From: Candidatus Odyssella sp.
GTDB taxonomy: Bacteria > Pseudomonadota > Alphaproteobacteria > Paracaedibacterales > CAITNM01
DNA length: 63,737 bases
NCBI GenBank assembly: GCA_020726185.1
Contig: DYTB01000005.1
Span: 1-63,737 of the forward strand
Direction: 5' to 3'
Each line of letters starts with the position of its first letter. Position 1 is the stretch's first letter. The translations under genes and the position numbers were made by a program. Of the stretch, positions 2,375 through 17,793 are shown piece after piece. Under the pieces are notes generated by a model that ran no database searches, had not been told where the DNA came from, and was given only the letters and a program-made list of their open reading frames with translations.

Positions 2375-3766
2375 TTAACCTTCACGATAATCACTAACAC
2401 CTAAAGCACGTAATTTTCTGTGTAATGCAGACCTTTCCATGCCTATAAATCTAGCTGTCTGTGAAATATTTCCATCAAAGCGCTGAATTTGAGCAAGCAA
2501 ATATTTTCGCTCAAAAGTCTCTCTGGCTTCACGTAAGGGAAGCACAATAATATCTGCAGATTTTTGTTGCCAATTATTTCCAAGAGGGGCATCGTTTTGA
2601 ATTTCAGGAGGAAGCATTTCAGGAGTTATGGCACTTGCTGGATCTCCTCCCGCCATAATCAACAACCATTCAACAACATTCTTAAGCTGAACAATATTGC
2701 CAGGCCAGCCATACGTCTGCAAAACTGTTAAGGATGAATCATCAATTTTTCTAGGCATGGAGCAACGGCTTTTTGCCATACTGTCCATAAAATAAGAAAT
2801 TAACAACGGGATATCACTAGCCCTCTCTTTTAATGAAGGAAGGCGAATATGATTTGCTGTAAAACGATAATACAAATCCTCTCGTAAATTCCCATTTTGA
2901 ACAAGATCATTTAAATTTTCAGATGTGCTTGCAAAATAGCGAATATCAACCTTAATTGGATCTTTTGACCCCAATCTAAAAAATGTTCCGTCCTGCAAAA
3001 GCCTGACTATCTTACCTTGAATAGGCAAAGGTAAAAGCTGAATTTCTTCTAGATACAGCGTACCGCCATGCGTTTTTTCAACAATTCCAATTTTACGAGG
3101 CTCACTTTGGTTTTGCCCCTGAATCTCAGTACCAAAAAGTTCTGCTTCAATAGCCGTAGGATGAATGCTACCGCAATTAAATACTGTAAAAGGAAGGTTA
3201 GTCCTTTTTGAAAGCCGATGTATTTCTCGGGCAACGCTCTCTTTTCCAGTGCCAGCTTGACCTGTGATAAACGCTCTACTATTCCCTTCAGCTATTTCAT
3301 CAATGAGATGGCGAATCTGTTCAATAACTAAACTTTTTCCGATAAGTCCTGAGCTTCCGGCACGTTGACGCAATTCATCATTTTCACGTTTCAGCGAAGC
3401 TGATTCAATTGCGCGCTCAACAACCATAAGAAGACGCTCAGTTTTAAAGGGTTTTTCGATAAAATCGTATGCCCCTTTTTTTATAGCAGAAACGGCTGTT
3501 TCAATAGTGCTGTGCCCACTAATCATAACAGTTGGCACATACGGGTGATCACGTTTAATAATCTCTAAAATTTTTAGACCATCACGCTCCCCATCACCTA
3601 GCCACACATCAAGTATTACCAAATTTGGCTGACGTTTCCTTATTTCTTCCAGCGCCTGCACACCATCAGCTGCCACACGACAATTGTAGTCTTCATCGCT
3701 TAAAATACCGCCAATCAGTTCGCGAATATCTTTCTCATCATCTACAACTAAAATATCAAACGCCAT
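2375..3766 (-). CDS. ntrX: Sigma54-type response regulator NtrX
   Basis: Receiver domain (ILVVDDE, LDVW), AAA+ domain (GTGKE, ELFG), C-terminal HTH (RSALHRKL); pairs with ntrY. Confidence 0.9.
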   Translation of the reverse strand: MAFDILVVDDEKDIRELIGGILSDEDYNCRVAADGVQALEEIRKRQPNLVILDVWLGDGERDGLKILEIIKRDHPYVPTVMISGHSTIETAVSAIKKGAYDFIEKPFKTERLLMVVERAIESASLKRENDELRQRAGSSGLIGKSLVIEQIRHLIDEIAEGNSRAFITGQAGTGKESVAREIHRLSKRTNLPFTVFNCGSIHPTAIEAELFGTEIQGQNQSEPRKIGIVEKTHGGTLYLEEIQLLPLPIQGKIVRLLQDGTFFRLGSKDPIKVDIRYFASTSENLNDLVQNGNLREDLYYRFTANHIRLPSLKERASDIPLLISYFMDSMAKSRCSMPRKIDDSSLTVLQTYGWPGNIVQLKNVVEWLLIMAGGDPASAITPEMLPPEIQNDAPLGNNWQQKSADIIVLPLREARETFERKYLLAQIQRFDGNISQTARFIGMERSALHRKLRALGVSDYREG

Positions 3767-5663
3767 GGTATTCCTTTTTTGAATAAGAGAACTCTAAAAT
3801 AACTTTCGCACCCGCTTGGTTATCGTTGTCTTTAAATTCTACATTCCCATTGTGATCCATTGCAATTTTAGAAACAATCGCTAAACCTAATCCTGTACCT
3901 TTTTCACGAGTTGTGTAATAAGGCTCAATTAAGCGCTCACGATTTTCTTTTTCAAATCCAGGACCATTATCTTGTATGATCATATAAAAATGTTTGTCTT
4001 CAAGCAACAATCTTATTGAAATTAAAGGTTTTAAAACTTTATTTTCTTCAACAGCATTGACTGCGTTTTGCAAAATATTTGTTAGCAACTGGCTTATTTG
4101 CTGACTGTCACAGCTCCAAAGAAAATTCTCAGGCCCCTTAAACTCAAATGTAATATGCGGATACGCTTGAATTTGCAATTCCATTGCCTGTTTGCATAAA
4201 TCAACAAGATCTTCTTCTTGTATATTTGGTTCTGGCATTCTGGCAAAAGATGAAAATTCATTCACAAGATTGCCAATGTGATTTACCTGACGAATAATCG
4301 TGTCGATACAGTTTTGAAAAGTATCTGGGTCATTTTCAATTTGCTTTAAGTATTTACGTTTTAATCGCTCTGCTGAAAGCTGTATTGGAGTCAGTGGATT
4401 TTTAATTTCATGCGCAATTTTACGCGCAACATCGGCCCATGCAGCTTTTCTCTGATTAAAAGCAAGCTCTTCATTCTGCTTTTTTAATCGGTGTGTCATG
4501 TGATTAAACGCACCTATTAGATTATCAATTTCATTATTTAAAGGCTTATTTGTAATATGCACATTCAAATCACCATGACTTACTTTATGTGCTGCCTCAA
4601 TGAGTTTTGATATAGGAGAAAAAAGTGCATTAGCTAATGACAACCCCATCCAAGCAGAGGCCAAAATCAGAACCAGCACTAAAATTGCAAAAAATGCCAG
4701 AAAAGTTAATTGAATATCCCCTTGCTGAAGCTCAAGCATCGAATATGCTGTAACAGCCCCTTTTGCCTTATCCATTGCTTTAGTAACGTCTTCAGAAACA
4801 GTTTTTCCAATGAATAAATATGTATCACTAACCGGATCCAATTGTATTAGCGCACGAACCTTGTCCTTGTGAGTAAACAAAACAATTTCACCTTCTTTGG
4901 CTTTTGCTAGATCTTGCAAGGTTATATTTTCAAATGCCAATGCAAAGGTAAAATAGGATTTTGCAATAATGTTAAGCAGCCCATCAAAAACAAGAACCTC
5001 ATTCAGACCTCGTTGCTCTGAGTGCTGAGTCAAAAGAAGATTGAAATCTTCAGTATTTTGAATAAGCATTGAAGCAACAGGGCGTAGTTGCATAACCATA
5101 CTCATTCCATCAATACGAATAGTTTTTTGGTTTTCCTTAATGTAGTTTTCAGCGATTTCTGTTGCAGCATTAATAGTGGTTTTAAAGGGCTCTGTAAAAA
5201 GTGATTTTATCGATGAATTAAAAAAGAAAGTAGAGAACACAGAAATGCCAACAGCAGGAAGAAGACAAGTTATGGCTAAAACCATAACTAAATGAAGATG
5301 TAACTTGATGCCACGAATTCCTCGTTTACGATCTAACCATAAAATAATGACACGCCGAATAATAAAAATAGCCATCAATACTAGCAAGCCAAGATTGATA
5401 TAGAGATAGGGAAGCACAGCTGTTGCTCTTAAAACACCTGATCCGAGACGCATAACCCAAAGTGTTGCAACACATGAGCAAAGGGCAAGCGCCATGACTA
5501 TGTATTGTGATGTTCTTGCTATATTGTCACGGCCCAGGAACTGAACAATACGATCTGTAAGTGATGATGTTTCTGTTATCATTTGCTCTTTAATAAAATA
5601 AAAATTAGACAAAATACATCTTCGATGCGGCTTCAGAACAATATCCTCATGAAAAAGTATCAC
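3756..5663 (-). CDS. ntrY: Sensor histidine kinase NtrY (start uncertain)
   Basis: TM segments, HAMP, H-box AWADVARKIAHEIKNPLTP, G boxes DNGPG and GTGLGL. Confidence 0.85.
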   Translation of the reverse strand: MILFHEDIVLKPHRRCILSNFYFIKEQMITETSSLTDRIVQFLGRDNIARTSQYIVMALALCSCVATLWVMRLGSGVLRATAVLPYLYINLGLLVLMAIFIIRRVIILWLDRKRGIRGIKLHLHLVMVLAITCLLPAVGISVFSTFFFNSSIKSLFTEPFKTTINAATEIAENYIKENQKTIRIDGMSMVMQLRPVASMLIQNTEDFNLLLTQHSEQRGLNEVLVFDGLLNIIAKSYFTFALAFENITLQDLAKAKEGEIVLFTHKDKVRALIQLDPVSDTYLFIGKTVSEDVTKAMDKAKGAVTAYSMLELQQGDIQLTFLAFFAILVLVLILASAWMGLSLANALFSPISKLIEAAHKVSHGDLNVHITNKPLNNEIDNLIGAFNHMTHRLKKQNEELAFNQRKAAWADVARKIAHEIKNPLTPIQLSAERLKRKYLKQIENDPDTFQNCIDTIIRQVNHIGNLVNEFSSFARMPEPNIQEEDLVDLCKQAMELQIQAYPHITFEFKGPENFLWSCDSQQISQLLTNILQNAVNAVEENKVLKPLISIRLLLEDKHFYMIIQDNGPGFEKENRERLIEPYYTTREKGTGLGLAIVSKIAMDHNGNVEFKDNDNQAGAKVILEFSYSKKEYHGV

Positions 5664-5692
5664 ACAAGAAGCGCATTAATGAAACGAAGTTT

Positions 5693-6730
5693 GTGCACAA
5701 TGATAAAAGATATAGCACACAGAAAGTTGATCTTGTACTTATTTTCATTAATAATAAAATTCAGAGATCAAAACTAACAAGCGAGAACTTAATTTTGCTT
5801 CTTAAATTTGCTTTGTGTATTTTAGTTTTTTGCATAAAAGCTCACTCAAAAAATTCTGATAATACAAATATAGACACTGAAGAACCGAGCTGCGCAACTA
5901 GCAGCACCATCAGCAAACCAAGAAATTATCAAGTTTTTCTTGAAAATTTTACTCAAAGTACCAAACGAGCCTGCTTATCTCTTGCTTTTGACATACCGAC
6001 TATTCTTCGGCAAGTCACTGGATCATCTTACAAGAACATTGCTAATGATTTGTTTAACAAGAAAATTCCTTACATTGGTCTTTTAAGCGTTCATAGCGCA
6101 GAAACATTTCTCAGATCACAGGTAATTTATTCTCTGTATTTGACGGTTACACCTCAAGCAAAAGTGTTAATGCCTGACTTATCAAAGGAATACCCATTAA
6201 TTCCACAGTTATGTGCAACGGCCATTATAGCTGGGAGCGATGTGATCTGCATGAATCCCTTTGAACGCATAAAGGTGTGCCTTTTAAATAAAAGAGATAT
6301 TCCGTTCTTTGATACAAAAATTAATTGGGCACAGTTTTGGAAAAGTAGAGAATGGCTTTTTACGGGAGGAACACTAACCTTTCAAACCAGCTTTGTGCAT
6401 GTCGGCACTTTTTTAGCGCTAAAGAATTATATAAGCCCTTTAGTAGTAAAGGGCGAAACTCCCAGTTTTTATGAATCTCTCCAGATGGGGGCCGTAATTA
6501 CCTGTGCCCAAACTGCCATCACATACCCATTACTGACATTTAGAGCAAGATTACACGATCAACAAGCAGAGTTATTCAATGCTGGCAAAAAGAGAATTTC
6601 CACTTCGCGTTTTTTTTATGAATTTTACAAAAAAAACAGATTGTTTCTTTTATACTCAGGCACATATTCGCGTTTAATGCGTGGCTTCGTGATAGCAGCT
6701 CAAGATGCTTCAGCTCTTCATAACAAGTAG
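5693..6730 (+). CDS. Mitochondrial carrier family (SLC25)-like protein; start may be TTG at 5795
   Basis: Three-repeat pattern: NPFERIKVCL fits Px[DE]xx[KR]; degenerate YPLLTFRARL and AFDIPTILRQ; even-helix motifs WLFTG and LLYSGTYSRLMRG. Confidence 0.7.
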   Translation: MHNDKRYSTQKVDLVLIFINNKIQRSKLTSENLILLLKFALCILVFCIKAHSKNSDNTNIDTEEPSCATSSTISKPRNYQVFLENFTQSTKRACLSLAFDIPTILRQVTGSSYKNIANDLFNKKIPYIGLLSVHSAETFLRSQVIYSLYLTVTPQAKVLMPDLSKEYPLIPQLCATAIIAGSDVICMNPFERIKVCLLNKRDIPFFDTKINWAQFWKSREWLFTGGTLTFQTSFVHVGTFLALKNYISPLVVKGETPSFYESLQMGAVITCAQTAITYPLLTFRARLHDQQAELFNAGKKRISTSRFFYEFYKKNRLFLLYSGTYSRLMRGFVIAAQDASALHNK

Positions 6731-6797: not shown

Positions 6798-7646
6798 ATG
6801 AACACAGACAAATGTTTATCGTTCTATTTAAACAATGGCACTTTAAAAGGACATTTTTGCAGATTAACCCATTCGACCGCAGAAGCGCTGAAAAATCATA
6901 ACTATCCTAAAAAAATAAACAAACTTTTGGCAGAAATGACCGCGATCTCGCAGTGCTTCACAATGGACGTAAAGTCAGACACACAAGCAACCATGCAATT
7001 AACAGGAACATCTCCTGTTAAGTTGGCTCTTGTTAACTCAAGAAATTGCGAATCTTTCAGATGCTGCGCAACTCTTGATTCAGCATCTGAAGCAGATCTT
7101 GAAGAACTATCAGTGCCTCAACTTTTTGGTCAAAAAGGCATGTTAGTTTTCACAATTGATTTTGAAAACCAGCATTACCAGACCATCATAGAACTGAGCG
7201 CTTCAAATTTACAGGAATGCTTTCAGCACTATTTTATTCAGTCTCAACAAATTCCGACGATTGTTATGCTGTGCAGCTCTGATGAAGAAAACAATATCTC
7301 TAGTGCTGCCCTGATTTTGCAGCGCATTCCAGCGACCCGTGATACAGATAGTGCTGAAGAAAACGACGTATGGCTAGAAGCATCTTGCCTTGCTTCGACA
7401 GTAAAGCATAAGGAATTACTAAATTCTGACCTGCCATTGGAAAAATTCATAAATTTAGTTTTCGGAAGTCTAACTCCAATTGTTTCACGTGAAACACACC
7501 TGACTTTTAAGTGCACGTGTAACCACGAAAAAATTGTTAGTATTGTTAAAAATCTTGATGGTCAGAATCCAGATAGAGAAATAGATGTTATTTGCGAGTA
7601 CTGCAATAAAAAATACACTATAGACAAAAAGGAAATTGATTCATAA
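6798..7646 (+). CDS. hslO: Hsp33 redox-regulated chaperone
   Basis: 282 aa; C-terminal zinc motif CTC...CEYC. Confidence 0.9.
   Translation: MNTDKCLSFYLNNGTLKGHFCRLTHSTAEALKNHNYPKKINKLLAEMTAISQCFTMDVKSDTQATMQLTGTSPVKLALVNSRNCESFRCCATLDSASEADLEELSVPQLFGQKGMLVFTIDFENQHYQTIIELSASNLQECFQHYFIQSQQIPTIVMLCSSDEENNISSAALILQRIPATRDTDSAEENDVWLEASCLASTVKHKELLNSDLPLEKFINLVFGSLTPIVSRETHLTFKCTCNHEKIVSIVKNLDGQNPDREIDVICEYCNKKYTIDKKEIDS
7481..7496. promoter_or_regulatory. parS centromere site inside hslO
   Basis: Perfect palindrome TGTTTCACGTGAAACA, translated as VSRET. Confidence 0.85.
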
Positions 7647-12292: not shown

Positions 12293-15200
12293 ATGACTCC
12301 AATCGCTCCTAGCAGTTTTGCTGATTTTATTCAATTTGTGCAAAACCAAACAAATAATCTACCTAGTCTCATTTTTTTGTTAATATTTTTTGGCTTAATG
12401 GTCATGCTGATATGTATTTTAATAATTAACATGAGCGTTAGAAAAGATAAAAAAATCAGTCTTAATGAAAAAAAATCGTTTTTAAAACGAAATTTTTCTC
12501 TTCCGCCGCTCGGTGGAATCATCACTTCTTTTTTGGTAAAACAGGGTTGGATACAAGTTAATTCTATTAGTCAGATTTTTCTAAAGGGCCTTGAGTTTTT
12601 AAAGAAAAATTTTGGGGAACATGCTTTATACAAACTACCTTGGTATATCGTTTTAGGTTCAAAAAACTCTGGAAAATCAACACTTGTGAACCATACTCAG
12701 TTACACGAGCCTCACAGTAGCCCAGATTTTAGTCTGCATGAACCTAATCCCCCTATTCGTTGGAAATTTTTCAGCCGTGGCGTACTTATAGATGTAGCGG
12801 GTCGATTATTCTTGAATAATCCAGAAATAGAAACAGATACAATCGCCTGGCGTAATCTTCTGATTCTTCTTGCACGATATAGGGCATCTAGACCTTTGAA
12901 TGGTATTGTATTATGCATAAGCGCTAAAGATCTTTATGGCAAAGAAAAACTATCACCAGATGCCTTACAAGCCCGTGCAAACACCATGCTACACACTCTC
13001 AGCAGGGCACAAACAAGCTTGCGCTTGCAACTGCCTATTTATGTTGTTATTACATACTGTGATGCAATTCCAGGTTTTCAAAATTTTGCGCAAGAATTAC
13101 CAGTTAAAAATCAAGGAAATATATTGGGATGGTCAAGTCCATATAATCTGCAATATATGTATTCACAAAACTGGATCAATGAAGCATTTCAGTATCTTGA
13201 TGAAAAAATAGATGAAGCACGTACTGAGCTATTGAGCTCAAACATAGATCCTAGCAACGCTGATGGGCTATTTGTTTTTTCTAAAGAGCTTTTAACAATT
13301 AAAGAAAATCTTAGCGGGTATATAAATCGCATTTTTCATGCCAGTGCTACACATGAAGCTCCAATATTGCGTGGTATATATTTCACAGGCAACAGCGGAA
13401 TTAGTGAGTCATCTCTACCATTTCTAAATGAATCCACTTCTGATCTATCATTAGAAGCACACACTAACACATCGATATCTCCTGTATTTTTACGAGATTT
13501 ATTTCAAGGTAAGATATTCTCTGAGATAGGAATTTCTAAACCGTTAACGGGAAAAGTTGCTACCTTGAATCGTGGCGTAAATATTATTCGAAACACAACC
13601 ATATGTTTCACTCTACTTGGAACTTATGGACTATTTAATGCATACGATACTTTTGGAGAAAAAAAAGAACGTATTTTACCCGTTCTATCAAAAATGAGCA
13701 GTCTTTTAAGAGACATGCAGTATTTAAAAATTGATGAACCTGGTCATTCAGCATCTTTATTTGACACTTACGCACGTCAATTACTTGATATGATGCAAGA
13801 GCTTCAACAGACTGAATTCATTTCTGTTATCGTTCCTGCATCCTGGTTTAGTCCTCTACATAAAGATCTTCATGCAGGTTTGCAAGTTGCTTACCAAGAA
13901 ATAGTAATTCGCACCATTTATGTTGATTTACTAATGAAAGCAAGAGAACTTCTGCAATTACGACCAACAGCAGGTGATAGGTCAACCTCATTGGCAGCTC
14001 TTCTTAATCCTCTAGTATCAAGCGAATACATGCTTTTAAAAAAATATGTCGAGGGATTATGCGAACTTAATGATATGTTATTTAATTTTAACAACTTAAA
14101 AAGTGCGCCCGATGCTCGTGACCTTGATAGCTTAATTATGTACACCTTTAATTCTCATTTACCTGAAAGTTTTGTGGGACAATATGCCAGCTTTCGAAAA
14201 GTTCTAAATGAGTCATCCTATCCTTTAATTAACCTTAAGCCCTATCAACAAATGGCAAGACAAACCTTGTCAATTATATATGAATTTTTTTTAAATGCTC
14301 TATTTTCTAAAAATGATTCGCAAACGCTAGTGTCGCGTATTCAAACCTTAGTTAATCAAACATAAAGCCAAAATGAAAAACACCTTCCTGATCTTACGAG
14401 TCTCCGAAGTACTGTGGGGGATTTATCACTAACCGCACCTTCTTTGGGAGAATTGGGCTCAACATGGATGGACGGAAAAACTTTCGTGCCTGGGAAAGAA
14501 TTTGATAAAATCCTTGACCATATAGATATGTCTCCACTTTTTGGTCGTGATGTTACTCAGTATTTAGTTGATCAAACGGCTATTGGATTTAATCGATTTA
14601 AAAATTTCTTGATGGCTATTAATGATTCTTTAGTGGATAAAGGCCTTAACCAGAAGGCGCTTCCCCCTTCTCATGGATTATTAACACTAGAAAAGTACTT
14701 AACTTCATTGTTTAAACTTAGCTTTATGGGGGTGCCTTCTGGAAAGCCTCTCACGACAAGAATTCCTGTAGGAAAACTTGTGTATTGGGATTCAAACTTA
14801 GTACAAGCAGCATTTAGCATGATGAAGGATTTTGATGTTTTCATTAGCAAAGACTTACTAGCCTACCCAATGTCTGTTCAAGAAAATATAAAAATAGCTG
14901 CTAGAATAAACTTGCAAGATGTTTTAATTGGAACTCTAGGTAAAGCATAAACTTTCATAGAGACTCTAAGAGATGTAAAACCAGGAACTGAATCTGAGCG
15001 CATGTTACGCGCTCAAATAAATGACTTTAAAGCTGTTGTTGATCCACTTGGAAAATTATTAGAAATCTTAAAGCAAGACGATGTTAGTAAGGCCTATATA
15101 GATCTTCGCGATTTACTTTGCAATCAATCACAATGGCTACTTACACACATCGACACTTACATTAAACAACACAAGCTCTACAAAATGAAGCAAGAGGATT

Positions 15201-16609
15201 TTGATTGGTGGGATGGAAAACCAGGAGCATCTATTGGCGCATTCGCTGTTCGCGATGGCAATGATTTAAAGCATTACGTAACTGTTCAGCGAGAGCTGTT
15301 AACTTCAGCAATTAATGACTTTGCAAAACCCATTATCGATCTTTTAAAAACCCCAGCTTTTGATGGTGCAGAGGATCGTGATGAAGCCTTGATTGAGCGT
15401 TGGATAAGATTGACCGAACAGGTTGAAGCTTACAATAAAAAACAACCCAGCAATTCTTTAGCTCAGCTTGAAAACTTCATTCTTACAGCCCTTAATGTGG
15501 GCAACTACAAAGACTCACTCAAACACCTCAAATTGAATGACTTATCAGAGATTTCTGGAGACTACCTGCTAGAAATTTTGCGAGAAATTAAAATGAAAGT
15601 TTTATCACGCGCTGAAGTTTTGCAACGCCATCAAGCCATTCAAAATTACGATAAACTAGTTCTTTTCTTTAATAAAAACTTAAAAGGAAAGTTTCCATTT
15701 GTCGGTGCAAAACTTGAAAAAAACAATGGCGAAGCAAATCCAGAAGACATACGTGAATTTTTTGACATATTTAAAGAGTGTGGTGATTCCACCAAGGTAG
15801 TTCTTGATCAATTATATCAAATTGGCCCAGACATGAAGGAGGCTGTACAATTCTTGCTATCCATGGAAGATGTTCGTCAATTTCTTAATGCCTATCTTAA
15901 GGACCCAAGTGCTGAAAAGCCAAATTTTAATATAAAAGTTAACTTTAGGGTTGCCCAAGATAAAGAAAACGGTGGCATTAACATTCTCGATTGGTACATA
16001 AAAACAGATGAAATAACTACAATTGATAAGCAAGATAAAAAATTAGAAGGCAAGGGAAGCTGGACTTTTGGAGCACCTGTAACTATTGGTTTTAAATGGG
16101 TAGAAACAGGAAATTCACCAAAACCACAATCAGACTCAGGACAATCATCGCTTAAAGTTGAGAGCGCTACCGCTGAATTTGTTTATGATAGTCAGTGGGC
16201 ACTGTTATGGTTAATTCGTGATCACCTTGCTCCTAAAGGTTCTTTTTCTAAAGTTTCAGAACCCAATCCTTATGTTCTAAAGTTCAACGTCCCCATGAGC
16301 GATCAAACTTTCACAACAGTGTACAATTCTATAAGTATAATTGTCTCGTCGAGTAAACCAAAGGGACCACCCAAGATAATTACCCTACCAACTTTTCCAA
16401 CATCTGCCCCTGATTTGCCAGAAAAAATAAAAGAAATAAAAGACAAGCCAGTTTTAACTGATGGAACAATTGAATCAACTGCTTTTGGTTTTTTTCTTTC
16501 TGAAACAAAAAAAGACACAAAAGAAGAAAATCAAAAAAATGAAGATACTTCTGGTGAACAAGAGAACAATCCAGAAGAAAAAAAGAAAGAAGAAACAGGT
16601 GAGCAATGA
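12293..16609 (+). pseudogene. tssM: TssM/IcmF, one 1438-codon frame interrupted by in-frame TAA at 14363 and 14948
   Basis: LPWYIVLGSKNSGKST, RPLNGIV, LPIYVVITYCD motifs; ORFs 12293, 14414 and 15002 share one frame and the gaps hold no other stops. Confidence 0.8.
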
Positions 16610-17793
16610 GCGATAGCCTAACACAAACCTCGACCTTTTCTGATGCATTATTAGCACCAATAAGCACAAACAATGGTGTTGGTGAATGGTTACGCTACGA
16701 TCCCATTTATGTAAAGATTCGTGATGCTCGACGTGAGGAAAATGACGGCATGCACCGAGAAAATTGGGAAGGAGAGTTAAAGCACGCAAATTGGCAAGAA
16801 GTAGAACGCTTGTCGACAAGCACCCTACAAACAAAAACAAAGGATTTACAGCTTCTGACATGGCTTTTAGAAGCAAGACTCCATCTGTATGGAGTGGCTA
16901 ATTTTTCACAAGACACAGCACTATTACTAACATTCATCAGAACTTTTTGGAAAGATCTTCATCCACAAAAAACAGAAGATCCTGATCAAGAATTTCGCAC
17001 AAACATCCTTGAATCTTTTATAAGGTTAGCCAGTGAAACAATACTCCTTGAGCCACTTAATGAACTCTCCCCAATTTTTAGTCAGCCCCCCAACCTCGCA
17101 AAATGTTATGAGGCTGACAATCTAGAAAAAACAGCAAAAAGCGGAGGAGCAGCTGCCGACACTTATCAAAAATCTTTGACAAACGGCCTGATTACTATAG
17201 ACAGAATTCGAAATGCTCTTTCTGAAGTAAATAAAGAAAAAGGAGAGGCAAAAGTTTTTCTGCTTGAAGCATGCATACAAAACCTAAAAAGCATTGATGA
17301 TTTTGTGAACGAAGCGATTGGAAACGAAGGCCCTCGCTTTGATGGATTAATTAGTCATTTGGAAGAACTAAAGGGATTATATTGTTTATGCAAAAAAGTT
17401 CCTGATGAAAAAATTAACAACGAAACAATATCCAGCACAACCCTAGCATTATCAGACGAAGAAAAAACTGAATCTAATAAAGAAGGGGATCCTAAAAAAC
17501 AAACAATAGATGACCGAGCTGGCGTTTATCAAGCTATCCGCCAGTTAGGTGAATTTCTTCTTACACTAGAACCTCATAGTCCTTCTCCTGCCCTTTTAAA
17601 GCTTATCGGCGGATGGGAGAATAAAACCCTATCCCAAATTTTGGCAGAGTTAAAAGCAACTCAACCAGAAACGCGCTCGTTATTAGAGCTTCTAGCGAGA
17701 GCAACTCATCAGGAAAACCCCCAACTTATCGCAGCTAACACCTCACTTGGATCGACAGACATTAGCCAACTGAGCAACATTGTTCCAGGGTAA
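16606..17793 (+). CDS. tssA: Type VI secretion TssA-like protein (ImpA_N domain)
   Basis: LLAPIS..GVGEWLRYDP.Y..IRDARRE...W..V......KTKDLQLLTWL; C-terminal EPHSPSP; ATGA overlap with tssM. Confidence 0.8.
   Translation: MSDSLTQTSTFSDALLAPISTNNGVGEWLRYDPIYVKIRDARREENDGMHRENWEGELKHANWQEVERLSTSTLQTKTKDLQLLTWLLEARLHLYGVANFSQDTALLLTFIRTFWKDLHPQKTEDPDQEFRTNILESFIRLASETILLEPLNELSPIFSQPPNLAKCYEADNLEKTAKSGGAAADTYQKSLTNGLITIDRIRNALSEVNKEKGEAKVFLLEACIQNLKSIDDFVNEAIGNEGPRFDGLISHLEELKGLYCLCKKVPDEKINNETISSTTLALSDEEKTESNKEGDPKKQTIDDRAGVYQAIRQLGEFLLTLEPHSPSPALLKLIGGWENKTLSQILAELKATQPETRSLLELLARATHQENPQLIAANTSLGSTDISQLSNIVPG

Follow-up and report, generated by a model that had tools for sequence, protein, structure and literature searches.

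Within the 63,737-nt window analysed, which is positions 1 to 63,737 of the forward strand of contig DYTB01000005.1 (assembly GCA_020726185.1, Candidatus Odyssella sp.), a forward-strand gene at 5795-6730 encodes a divergent homologue of the mitochondrial carriers of the SLC25 family. On balance, we favour the reading that this carrier protein is a transporter inserted by the Sec pathway into the bacterium's own inner membrane, with its matrix face turned to the bacterial cytoplasm and a substrate that is probably anionic and not thiamine. This reading draws on the homology and fold of the protein, its N-terminal signal segment, the asymmetry of its loop charges, purifying selection, transcripts, its clade and a riboswitch on one clade member, P0019. 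From these observations we infer its membrane location, topology, transport direction and substrate class.

A signal-bearing carrier gene

The open reading frame (ORF) occupies 5693..6730 on the forward strand of the window, which is contig 49 of a 1.54 Mb genome (53 contigs, 95 % complete), and comprises 345 codons counted from GTG 5693. An initial annotation of this DNA had drawn attention to an in-frame TTG at 5795 that would provide a signal-peptide-like start, and comparison with homologues bears this out. The equivalent start (M-L-L-K-F-A-L-C...) is used by six database relatives and by orthologues in related genomes, its codon being ATG in G006 and G004, the two species that are further removed within the genus, and TTG in close relatives. 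The extension to GTG 5693 is not conserved, because a stop lies 12 codons 5' of the TTG-equivalent start in genomes G002 and G009. Given the homologue starts and these upstream stops, the gene was therefore taken as 5795-6730, and residues are numbered throughout in the resulting 311-aa form. The features of the gene are listed below, with H1 to H6 denoting the six carrier helices.

5795..6730, forward strand: carrier gene, 311 codons, TTG 5795 to TAG 6728-6730
5795..5848, forward strand: signal-peptide-like segment MLLKFALCILVFCIKAHS, aa 1-18, conserved in all full-length relatives
5849..5926, forward strand: low-complexity N-terminal tail, net acidic or neutral, aa 19-44, predicted disordered, and periplasmic if the proposed topology holds
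5927..6184, forward strand: carrier repeat 1 (H1, short matrix helix, H2), delimited by hhalign register, AlphaFold2 helices and motif table
5984-6010, forward strand: motif AFDIPTILR, aa 64-72, PFDxxT in relatives, with the acid kept and the base lost
6185..6460, forward strand: carrier repeat 2 (H3, matrix helix, H4), with the intact signature and LFTGG
6254-6274, forward strand: NPFERIK, aa 154-160, in which PFERIK (6257-6274) is an intact Px[DE]xx[KR]
6356-6370, forward strand: LFTGG, aa 188-192, the [YF]xG even-helix motif of repeat 2
6461..6727, forward strand: carrier repeat 3 (H5, matrix helix, H6), the sole Pfam-scoring repeat (aa 223-302)
6527-6544, forward strand: PLLTFR, within YPLLTFR (aa 244-250), with the acid replaced by L and the base kept
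Within repeat 3, forward strand: LYSG (aa 286-289), a [YF]xG even-helix motif on H6, followed by R296
6610-6617 and 6629-6636, forward strand: homopolymers T8 and A8, 11 bases apart within repeat 3, length variants of which shift the frame and remove H6

Homology and fold

The carrier protein matched Pfam family PF00153 (Mito_carr) at 37.3 bits (E 2.2e-9, cut-off 22.3), the match being confined to repeat 3, and the same family was matched by all 11 aligned family members. Searched alone against Pfam, repeats 1 and 2 gave no match or E 0.028 at best; the three repeat sub-alignments failed to detect each other in hhalign (probability <1 %), and no NCBIfam family was matched by the protein. Alignment of the family profile to that of 21 eukaryotic carriers gave an hhalign probability of 98.9 % (E 2e-17, 244 columns), with all three repeats and the odd-helix motifs in register, and the P-equivalent positions of the three odd-helix motifs were spaced 91 and 90 residues apart. 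The three-repeat pattern read initially from the letters, with NPFERIK intact and two degenerate motifs, is upheld by this spacing and register. The even-helix [YF]xG motifs claimed alongside it are present in repeats 2 and 3, and repeat 1 has none.

An AlphaFold2 model built from the 11-sequence alignment had a mean predicted local distance difference test score (pLDDT) of 77 and a predicted template modelling score (pTM) of 0.72, with pLDDT of 84-92 over residues 100-290 and below 50 over residues 1-41. It comprised six long and three short helices, those of repeat 1 spanning residues 43-75, 79-87 and 93-125. In a Foldseek search of the PDB, the top 14 matches were all carrier chains (UCP1, ADP/ATP carriers, oxoglutarate carrier) with a probability of 1.0 and template modelling (TM) scores of 0.59-0.64 over ~290 columns, followed by unrelated folds at TM <0.27. 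Sequence search of the PDB returned weak repeat-3 matches only (E 0.006-0.3). The eukaryotic SLC25 carriers (1OKC, 4C9H, 6GCI, UCP1 8HBV and the oxoglutarate carrier) are the best and sole convincing fold matches, sharing with the protein three tandem ~90-residue repeats, six long helices together with three short ones on the matrix side, a gate of the Px[DE]xx[KR] type and a contact-point Arg on H6, with just 11-16 % identity to the solved structures. Unlike them, the protein is bacterially encoded, carries an added N-terminal hydrophobic signal and acidic tail, and possesses neither the bridge between H5 acid and H1 base nor any of the cytoplasmic [FY][DE]xx[KR] network. It is a genuine but much-diverged SLC25 homologue with the six-helix fold, and the homology suspected initially was thus confirmed by both the Mito_carr match and the barrel.

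N-terminal signal and predicted topology

The segment MLLKFALCILVFCIKAHS, judged by hand as a signal peptide, has a basic n-region with K, a hydrophobic core of 10-11 residues and AHS at -3..-1, and the tail that follows it in the family, acidic or polar, is 10-25 residues long. This combination precedes helix 1 in every full-length relative, and also in P0011-P0036, a set of signal-bearing carriers from Paracaedibacterales and related metagenome-assembled genomes (MAGs). A lipoprotein signal was rejected by inspection, as no lipobox precedes the conserved Cys8. Hydrophobicity, taken as a crude Hessa-scale sum over windows of 12-17 residues, was ~-1.9 for the N-terminal segment, the one segment of the protein in the range of the signal recognition particle (SRP) and Sec. 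The best carrier-helix window scored +2.4 in the carrier protein and +1.5 to +2.4 across the family, and sampled eukaryotic carriers scored -1.7 to +1.4. For reference, SRP-recognised segments lie at ~-2 to -1 and SRP-escaping segments at 0 to +1 (PMC12981334). Because no other segment falls in the SRP range, the N-terminal segment is predicted to be the only plausible membrane-targeting signal.

A hydrophobic signal conserved in this way should guide the nascent protein to the bacterial SecYEG/YidC machinery, after which the signal may be removed by cleavage behind AHS or stay on as an additional anchor. In either case the start of helix 1 would be periplasmic, with the acidic N-tail placed in the periplasm, which would give a mitochondrial-like topology with both termini outside. 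The barrel would be oriented as in mitochondria, its matrix gate and positive loops cytoplasmic and its open side facing the periplasm and host cytosol. Summed over 11 sequences, the matrix-side loops contain 179 K+R against 72 D+E (~+107) and the outer segments 64 K+R against 62 D+E (~0), an asymmetry that is consistent with the proposed topology and is not proof of it.

The initial annotation had proposed a different destination, namely that the protein is an effector for host mitochondria. On that account the carrier would be exported and inserted via TOM/TIM22 into host mitochondria, or into another host membrane, draining or disturbing metabolites like LncP of Legionella. LncP provides a precedent as a carrier-family protein of an intracellular bacterium of protists, presumably derived from a eukaryote; by description, it has no Sec signal, probably bypasses YidC/SecYEG and reaches host mitochondria through Dot/Icm (PMC3252375). 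The lifestyle of the lineage would allow it, in that the nearest public relatives of the source genome are MAGs labelled Candidatus Finniella (Paracaedibacteraceae, Holosporales), whose species live as symbionts in cercozoan amoeboflagellates and in ciliates and lie free in the cytoplasm of the host (PMC11909080). The carrier helices are also too weakly hydrophobic for strong stop-transfer, making full translocation to the periplasm conceivable, and a two-step secretion of hydrophobic effectors of type IV secretion systems (T4SS) via an inner-membrane intermediate has been proposed (PMC12981334). Against this, the carrier protein differs from LncP in its conserved Sec-type signal, which, with the predicted topology in the bacterium's own membrane, the secretion repertoire described next and the thiamine pyrophosphate (TPP) riboswitch on a clade member, leads us to regard a host-directed effector as unlikely and the initial inference as probably wrong.

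Secretion systems and genomic neighbourhood

No VirB4 (PF03135) was found in any of the 14 genus genomes or in any of the 17 order genomes that bear a carrier, Dot/Icm-specific proteins not having been searched individually. The only T4SS genes seen in the source genome formed an F-type conjugation cluster on contig C42. This cluster (C42:290-10127) encodes TraN, TraF, TraH, a TraG-like ORF of 908 codons and a coupling protein of the TraD type, after which comes an ORF resembling a DNA cytosine methyltransferase. Weak matches to coupling proteins of this kind occurred in 33/62 order genomes, though VirB4 (PF03135) was nearly absent. Other possible routes out of the cell are two secretins in the source genome and a type VI secretion system (T6SS) encoded 3.4 kb downstream of the carrier gene, the T6SS being the main secretion system of the lineage according to a review of the Holosporales. 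We know of no cargo of either the T6SS or the type II secretion system (T2SS) that combines a Sec signal with six membrane helices. The nearby tssM (IcmF-like, 12293-17793) is moreover split into four ORFs (12293-14365, 14414-14950, 15002-16609 and 16606-17793), whereas its orthologue in G006 is one gene of 1429 codons. Both the unfamiliar cargo type and the fragmented tssM argue against the effector account.

The immediate neighbours of the carrier gene are as follows.

3756..5663, reverse strand: ntrY sensor kinase, the divergent upstream neighbour and a conserved flank of the slot occupied by the carrier gene, from Pfam (NtrY_N/HAMP/HisKA/HATPase_c) and synteny
5664..5794, no strand assigned: divergent intergenic region of 131 bp from the ntrY start to the carrier start, with no riboswitch
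6798..7646, forward strand: hslO (Hsp33), the downstream neighbour, from Pfam and synteny

Beyond ntrY lie ntrX and then trkA, and hslO is followed by rsmG, parA, parB and then the T6SS genes tssK/tssL/tssM, in keeping with the housekeeping surroundings described initially. Downstream of trkA, a 199-codon ORF on the reverse strand (380-979) matched no Pfam family and is 52-99 % identical across the genus. In the intergenic region, one weak sigma-70-like match was found on the forward strand at 5727-5755, and promoter-like matches upstream of the carrier gene were no commoner than chance. GC content and GC content at third codon positions (GC3) of the carrier gene equal those of its neighbours, and recent horizontal transfer or an island origin was rejected on this basis. 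That the gene lies outside any island, has the composition of its genome and stands among housekeeping genes in every context examined is a further point against the effector account.

Gate and binding-site residues

An intact Px[DE]xx[KR] was found on one of the three odd helices, as the PFERIK of repeat 2, and two of the three matrix-gate bridges are possible (H1 acid with H3 base, H3 acid with H5 base). The H5 acid and H1 base were jointly lost in 20 of the 21 aligned sequences of the signal-bearing clade; the 21st, an N-terminally truncated copy from G009, is without repeat 1 and unscorable for the H1 base. Both residues are retained in the signal-less bacterial relative P0029. Judged from the alignment, the retention of two bridges together with the paired loss of the third looks co-adapted rather than random. 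On the cytoplasmic side, no acid/base pairs of the [FY][DE]xx[KR] network were present at the expected positions of H2, H4 and H6, even-helix positions having been assigned by hand relative to [FYW][KR]G motifs. In carrier theory, a missing cytoplasmic-side network favours net uptake over strict exchange.

Contact points were placed by counting +7 from the Gly of the [FYW][KR]G-type motif, a rule that we take from R79, G182/I183 and R279 of the ADP/ATP carrier. On H6 the contact point falls at R296, an invariant residue, in agreement with a HMMER alignment to ADP/ATP carriers; that of H4 is T198/S199, which matches no classical substrate key, and that of H2 is probably R107. Arginines at the H2 and H6 contact points suggest a substrate of the anionic class. 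Across sequences only 34-40 % identical, 26 columns are invariant, including the cavity-facing residues R58, R158, R250, R296, H202 and Q239. Taken with the topology proposed above, these features would describe a barrel whose alternating access brings a small host metabolite, probably an anion, into the bacterium, with net uptake favoured over strict exchange because the cytoplasmic-side network is essentially absent.

The same residues could be read differently, as those of an inner-membrane protein that keeps the carrier fold and no longer transports metabolites, whether as a channel, a scaffold or a relic being lost. One signature intact out of three, the missing cytoplasmic salt-bridge network and the failure of Pfam to detect repeats 1 and 2 all fit such a protein. 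The correlated loss of one bridge pair with two retained is, however, what would be expected of a working gate, and cavity-facing residues persist among the invariant columns despite the low overall identity. Together with the selection data given below, this makes the loss of transport function rather improbable in our judgement.

Distribution, selection and expression

Among 185,579 species genomes, a pattern scan detected family relatives in 12, and a profile search of 1.84 billion representatives recovered 12 proteins at E <1e-30 and 20 at <1e-10. PF00153 occurred in 17/62 genomes of the GTDB order, representing 7/20 genera, and in 0/14 control genomes; across the class, sampled evenly, it was found in 6/401 genomes, all six of 1.2-1.8 Mb. 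Near-identical DNA was present in metagenomes from biofilm, cave, lake and river.

Among the 14 genus genomes, the gene is intact in G000, G005, G011, G004 and G006 and absent from six, the ntrY-hslO slot being empty in G010. Single lesions are present in G002 (TCA to TAA; gene at L019:5874-6800), G009 (A7 to A6; gene at L020:3747-4672) and G003 (T9/A9). As G002 and G009 are closely related and the gene is otherwise well conserved, their lesions suggest very recent inactivation or strain polymorphism. Where present, genus copies are always found in the ntrY-hslO slot, and copies of the related family f3 lie elsewhere. The T8 and A8 runs were variable beyond a single genome, with T9 and A9 together in both G003 and a contig from RNA run X26, and with JGI cluster P0001 (68 sequences) frameshifted at the A run. 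These length variants could be real alleles prone to slippage, which transcriptional slippage might in turn rescue, or else recurrent assembly errors.

Absence from 6/14 genomes, the empty slot in G010 and single disabling lesions in G002, G003, G009 and G042 would all suit a carrier that has ceased to transport and is being lost. The ratio of non-synonymous to synonymous substitution (dN/dS) was 0.08-0.15 among close orthologues, however, indicating purifying selection and thus constraint on the protein. Under the reading of an inner-membrane importer, the carrier gene would be an accessory nutrient-scavenging gene, kept beside the Tlc/NTT nucleotide transporters and lost repeatedly within the genus. 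Metatranscriptome contigs from four independent runs were 95-99 % identical to parts of the gene, the longest (run X23) spanning 5735-6019 and crossing the TTG start. Close environmental relatives are thus transcribed, subject to the usual reservation about DNA carry-over.

Phylogeny and origin

A maximum-likelihood tree (LG+C20 with posterior mean site frequencies, PMSF), in which eukaryotes were sampled as the closest hits only and branches were long, split all bacterial carriers from the sampled eukaryotic ones with a support of 100/99. All signal-bearing bacterial carriers formed one clade (97/96), and the signal-less compact carriers of other small alphaproteobacterial genomes fell outside it. 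These compact carriers, from genomes G200 (L030/L035), G350 (L031/L036) and G252 (L032/L037) of 1.2-1.8 Mb, have ~250-270 residues, no signal peptide and canonical PLD/PLE/PLD motifs, the copy in G252 being interrupted by an internal TAA.

The Finniella family shares with P0011-P0036 its clade, the signal with acidic tail, the loss of the H5 acid and H1 base, and a conserved H6 Asp, around which the carrier gene reads QDASALHN and most relatives D-[ST]-Y-W-x-N. It is nevertheless a distinct sub-branch (E 1e-62 or weaker to the others) in which the contact-point residues are particular to the family, riboswitches are missing and, within the genus, the gene always lies between ntrY and hslO. As to origin, transfer of the gene from a eukaryote would be the most economical reading. 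The placement of the bacterial sequences on one side of the 100/99 branch would also fit signal-bearing carriers that are a surviving bacterial lineage akin to the stock from which eukaryotic SLC25 proteins, including the ATP exporter, were drawn at the origin of mitochondria. We regard such bacterial ancestry as highly improbable, and transfer from a eukaryote as far likelier, because the bacterial genes are patchy and restricted to small, host-associated genomes (6/401).

TPP riboswitches and substrate

The contigs of ten distant clade members were scanned for riboswitches. A TPP riboswitch (RF00059; 67.3 bits, gathering score 54.3) was identified at L047:280-384, running into the start at 372 of P0019, a signal-bearing clade member (L047:372-1250) on a 4.9 kb metagenome contig. 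P0019 is thereby a candidate bacterial importer of TPP or thiamine with a carrier fold. As its riboswitch senses the bacterium's own TPP pool, a carrier under its control makes sense only as a supplier of the bacterium, which again speaks against host-directed effectors in this clade. The argument applies to the clade and not directly to the carrier gene at 5795-6730, upstream of which no Rfam family was found in 5664..5794 (best E 3-7). Nor did a riboswitch precede the Finniella-family, f3-family, P0011, P0021 or P0024 homologues.

By analogy with riboswitch-controlled relatives, the carrier protein itself might be thought to import TPP. We consider this very doubtful, since neither the carrier gene nor any Finniella-family or nearer homologue examined has a riboswitch, and the even-helix contact-point residues differ between P0019 and the Finniella family. 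The single TPP riboswitch of the source genome (C21:1200-1301) precedes a 403-codon ORF resembling a major facilitator superfamily (MFS) transporter, which makes thiamine an unlikely substrate of the carrier protein. Exactly one TPP riboswitch was present in each of the 14 genus genomes regardless of whether the carrier was present, and at least one in 52/62 order genomes.

Gene context was also considered as a clue to the substrate and set aside, the neighbours differing per lineage and all being housekeeping genes. Of the distant signal-bearing carriers, P0024 lies directly upstream of the glycine cleavage genes gcvT-gcvH-gcvP (region L046:7001-10826), and P0010 lies near folD and bioY (region L045:7001-10517). 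These neighbours may hint at substrates within their own sub-branches, and they were not relied on here.

Weighing the inner-membrane reading

Several observations weigh against an inner-membrane importer. The carrier gene is the fastest-evolving of its neighbourhood, its G000 and G006 copies being 41 % identical where those of its neighbours reach 59-93 %, and it is patchy within the genus. Patchiness is a pattern that effectors also show, and both features, with the pseudogenes, count in favour of the effector account. The six carrier helices are weakly hydrophobic, and stable Sec/YidC insertion is therefore assumed. The positive charge of the matrix loops is general in eukaryotic carriers as well. 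The RNA evidence consists of contig fragments from environmental relatives and may include DNA carry-over, and the riboswitch belongs to a distant member, P0019, which matches the Finniella-family profile at E 1e-18.

Relation to known systems and implications

The carrier family is regarded as an invention of eukaryotes, and to our knowledge the sole bacterial member studied is LncP, an injected effector. Bacterial carriers have been recorded in Legionella (LncP and three genes of L. longbeachae) and Neorickettsia (PMC3252375), and carrier-family genes in Cardinium and Neorickettsia (PMC6232779); those of Babela massiliensis (TM6) are listed among nutrient importers, with specificity unknown (PMC4378268). 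Cardinium, Neorickettsia and Babela resemble the present case in being obligate intracellular bacteria that encode carriers, and differ in lineage; the papers on them give neither a signal-peptide analysis nor a localisation or substrate. No paper was found on carriers in Holosporales or Finniella, on the signal-peptide-bearing carrier clade, or on a link between TPP riboswitches and bacterial carriers. In proposed role, there is a parallel with the Tlc/NTT nucleotide transporters of Rickettsiales, Chlamydiae and Holosporales, which import host cytosolic metabolites across the inner membrane. Their 12-helix fold is unrelated, making the likeness a functional analogy only, and Tlc is present in 14/14 genus genomes.

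The practical value of the carrier gene at 5795-6730 would be modest until its substrate is known. If the inner-membrane reading is true, endosymbionts have put the carrier fold into their own inner membrane, in a clade with Sec signals of which one member is riboswitch-controlled. This would be the same membrane and orientation in which mitochondrial carriers were installed by the host, here achieved with a gene encoded by the symbiont. Such a system would offer a tractable model for carrier insertion without TIM22, for what symbionts take besides ATP, and for the origin of the family and the direction of its transfer.

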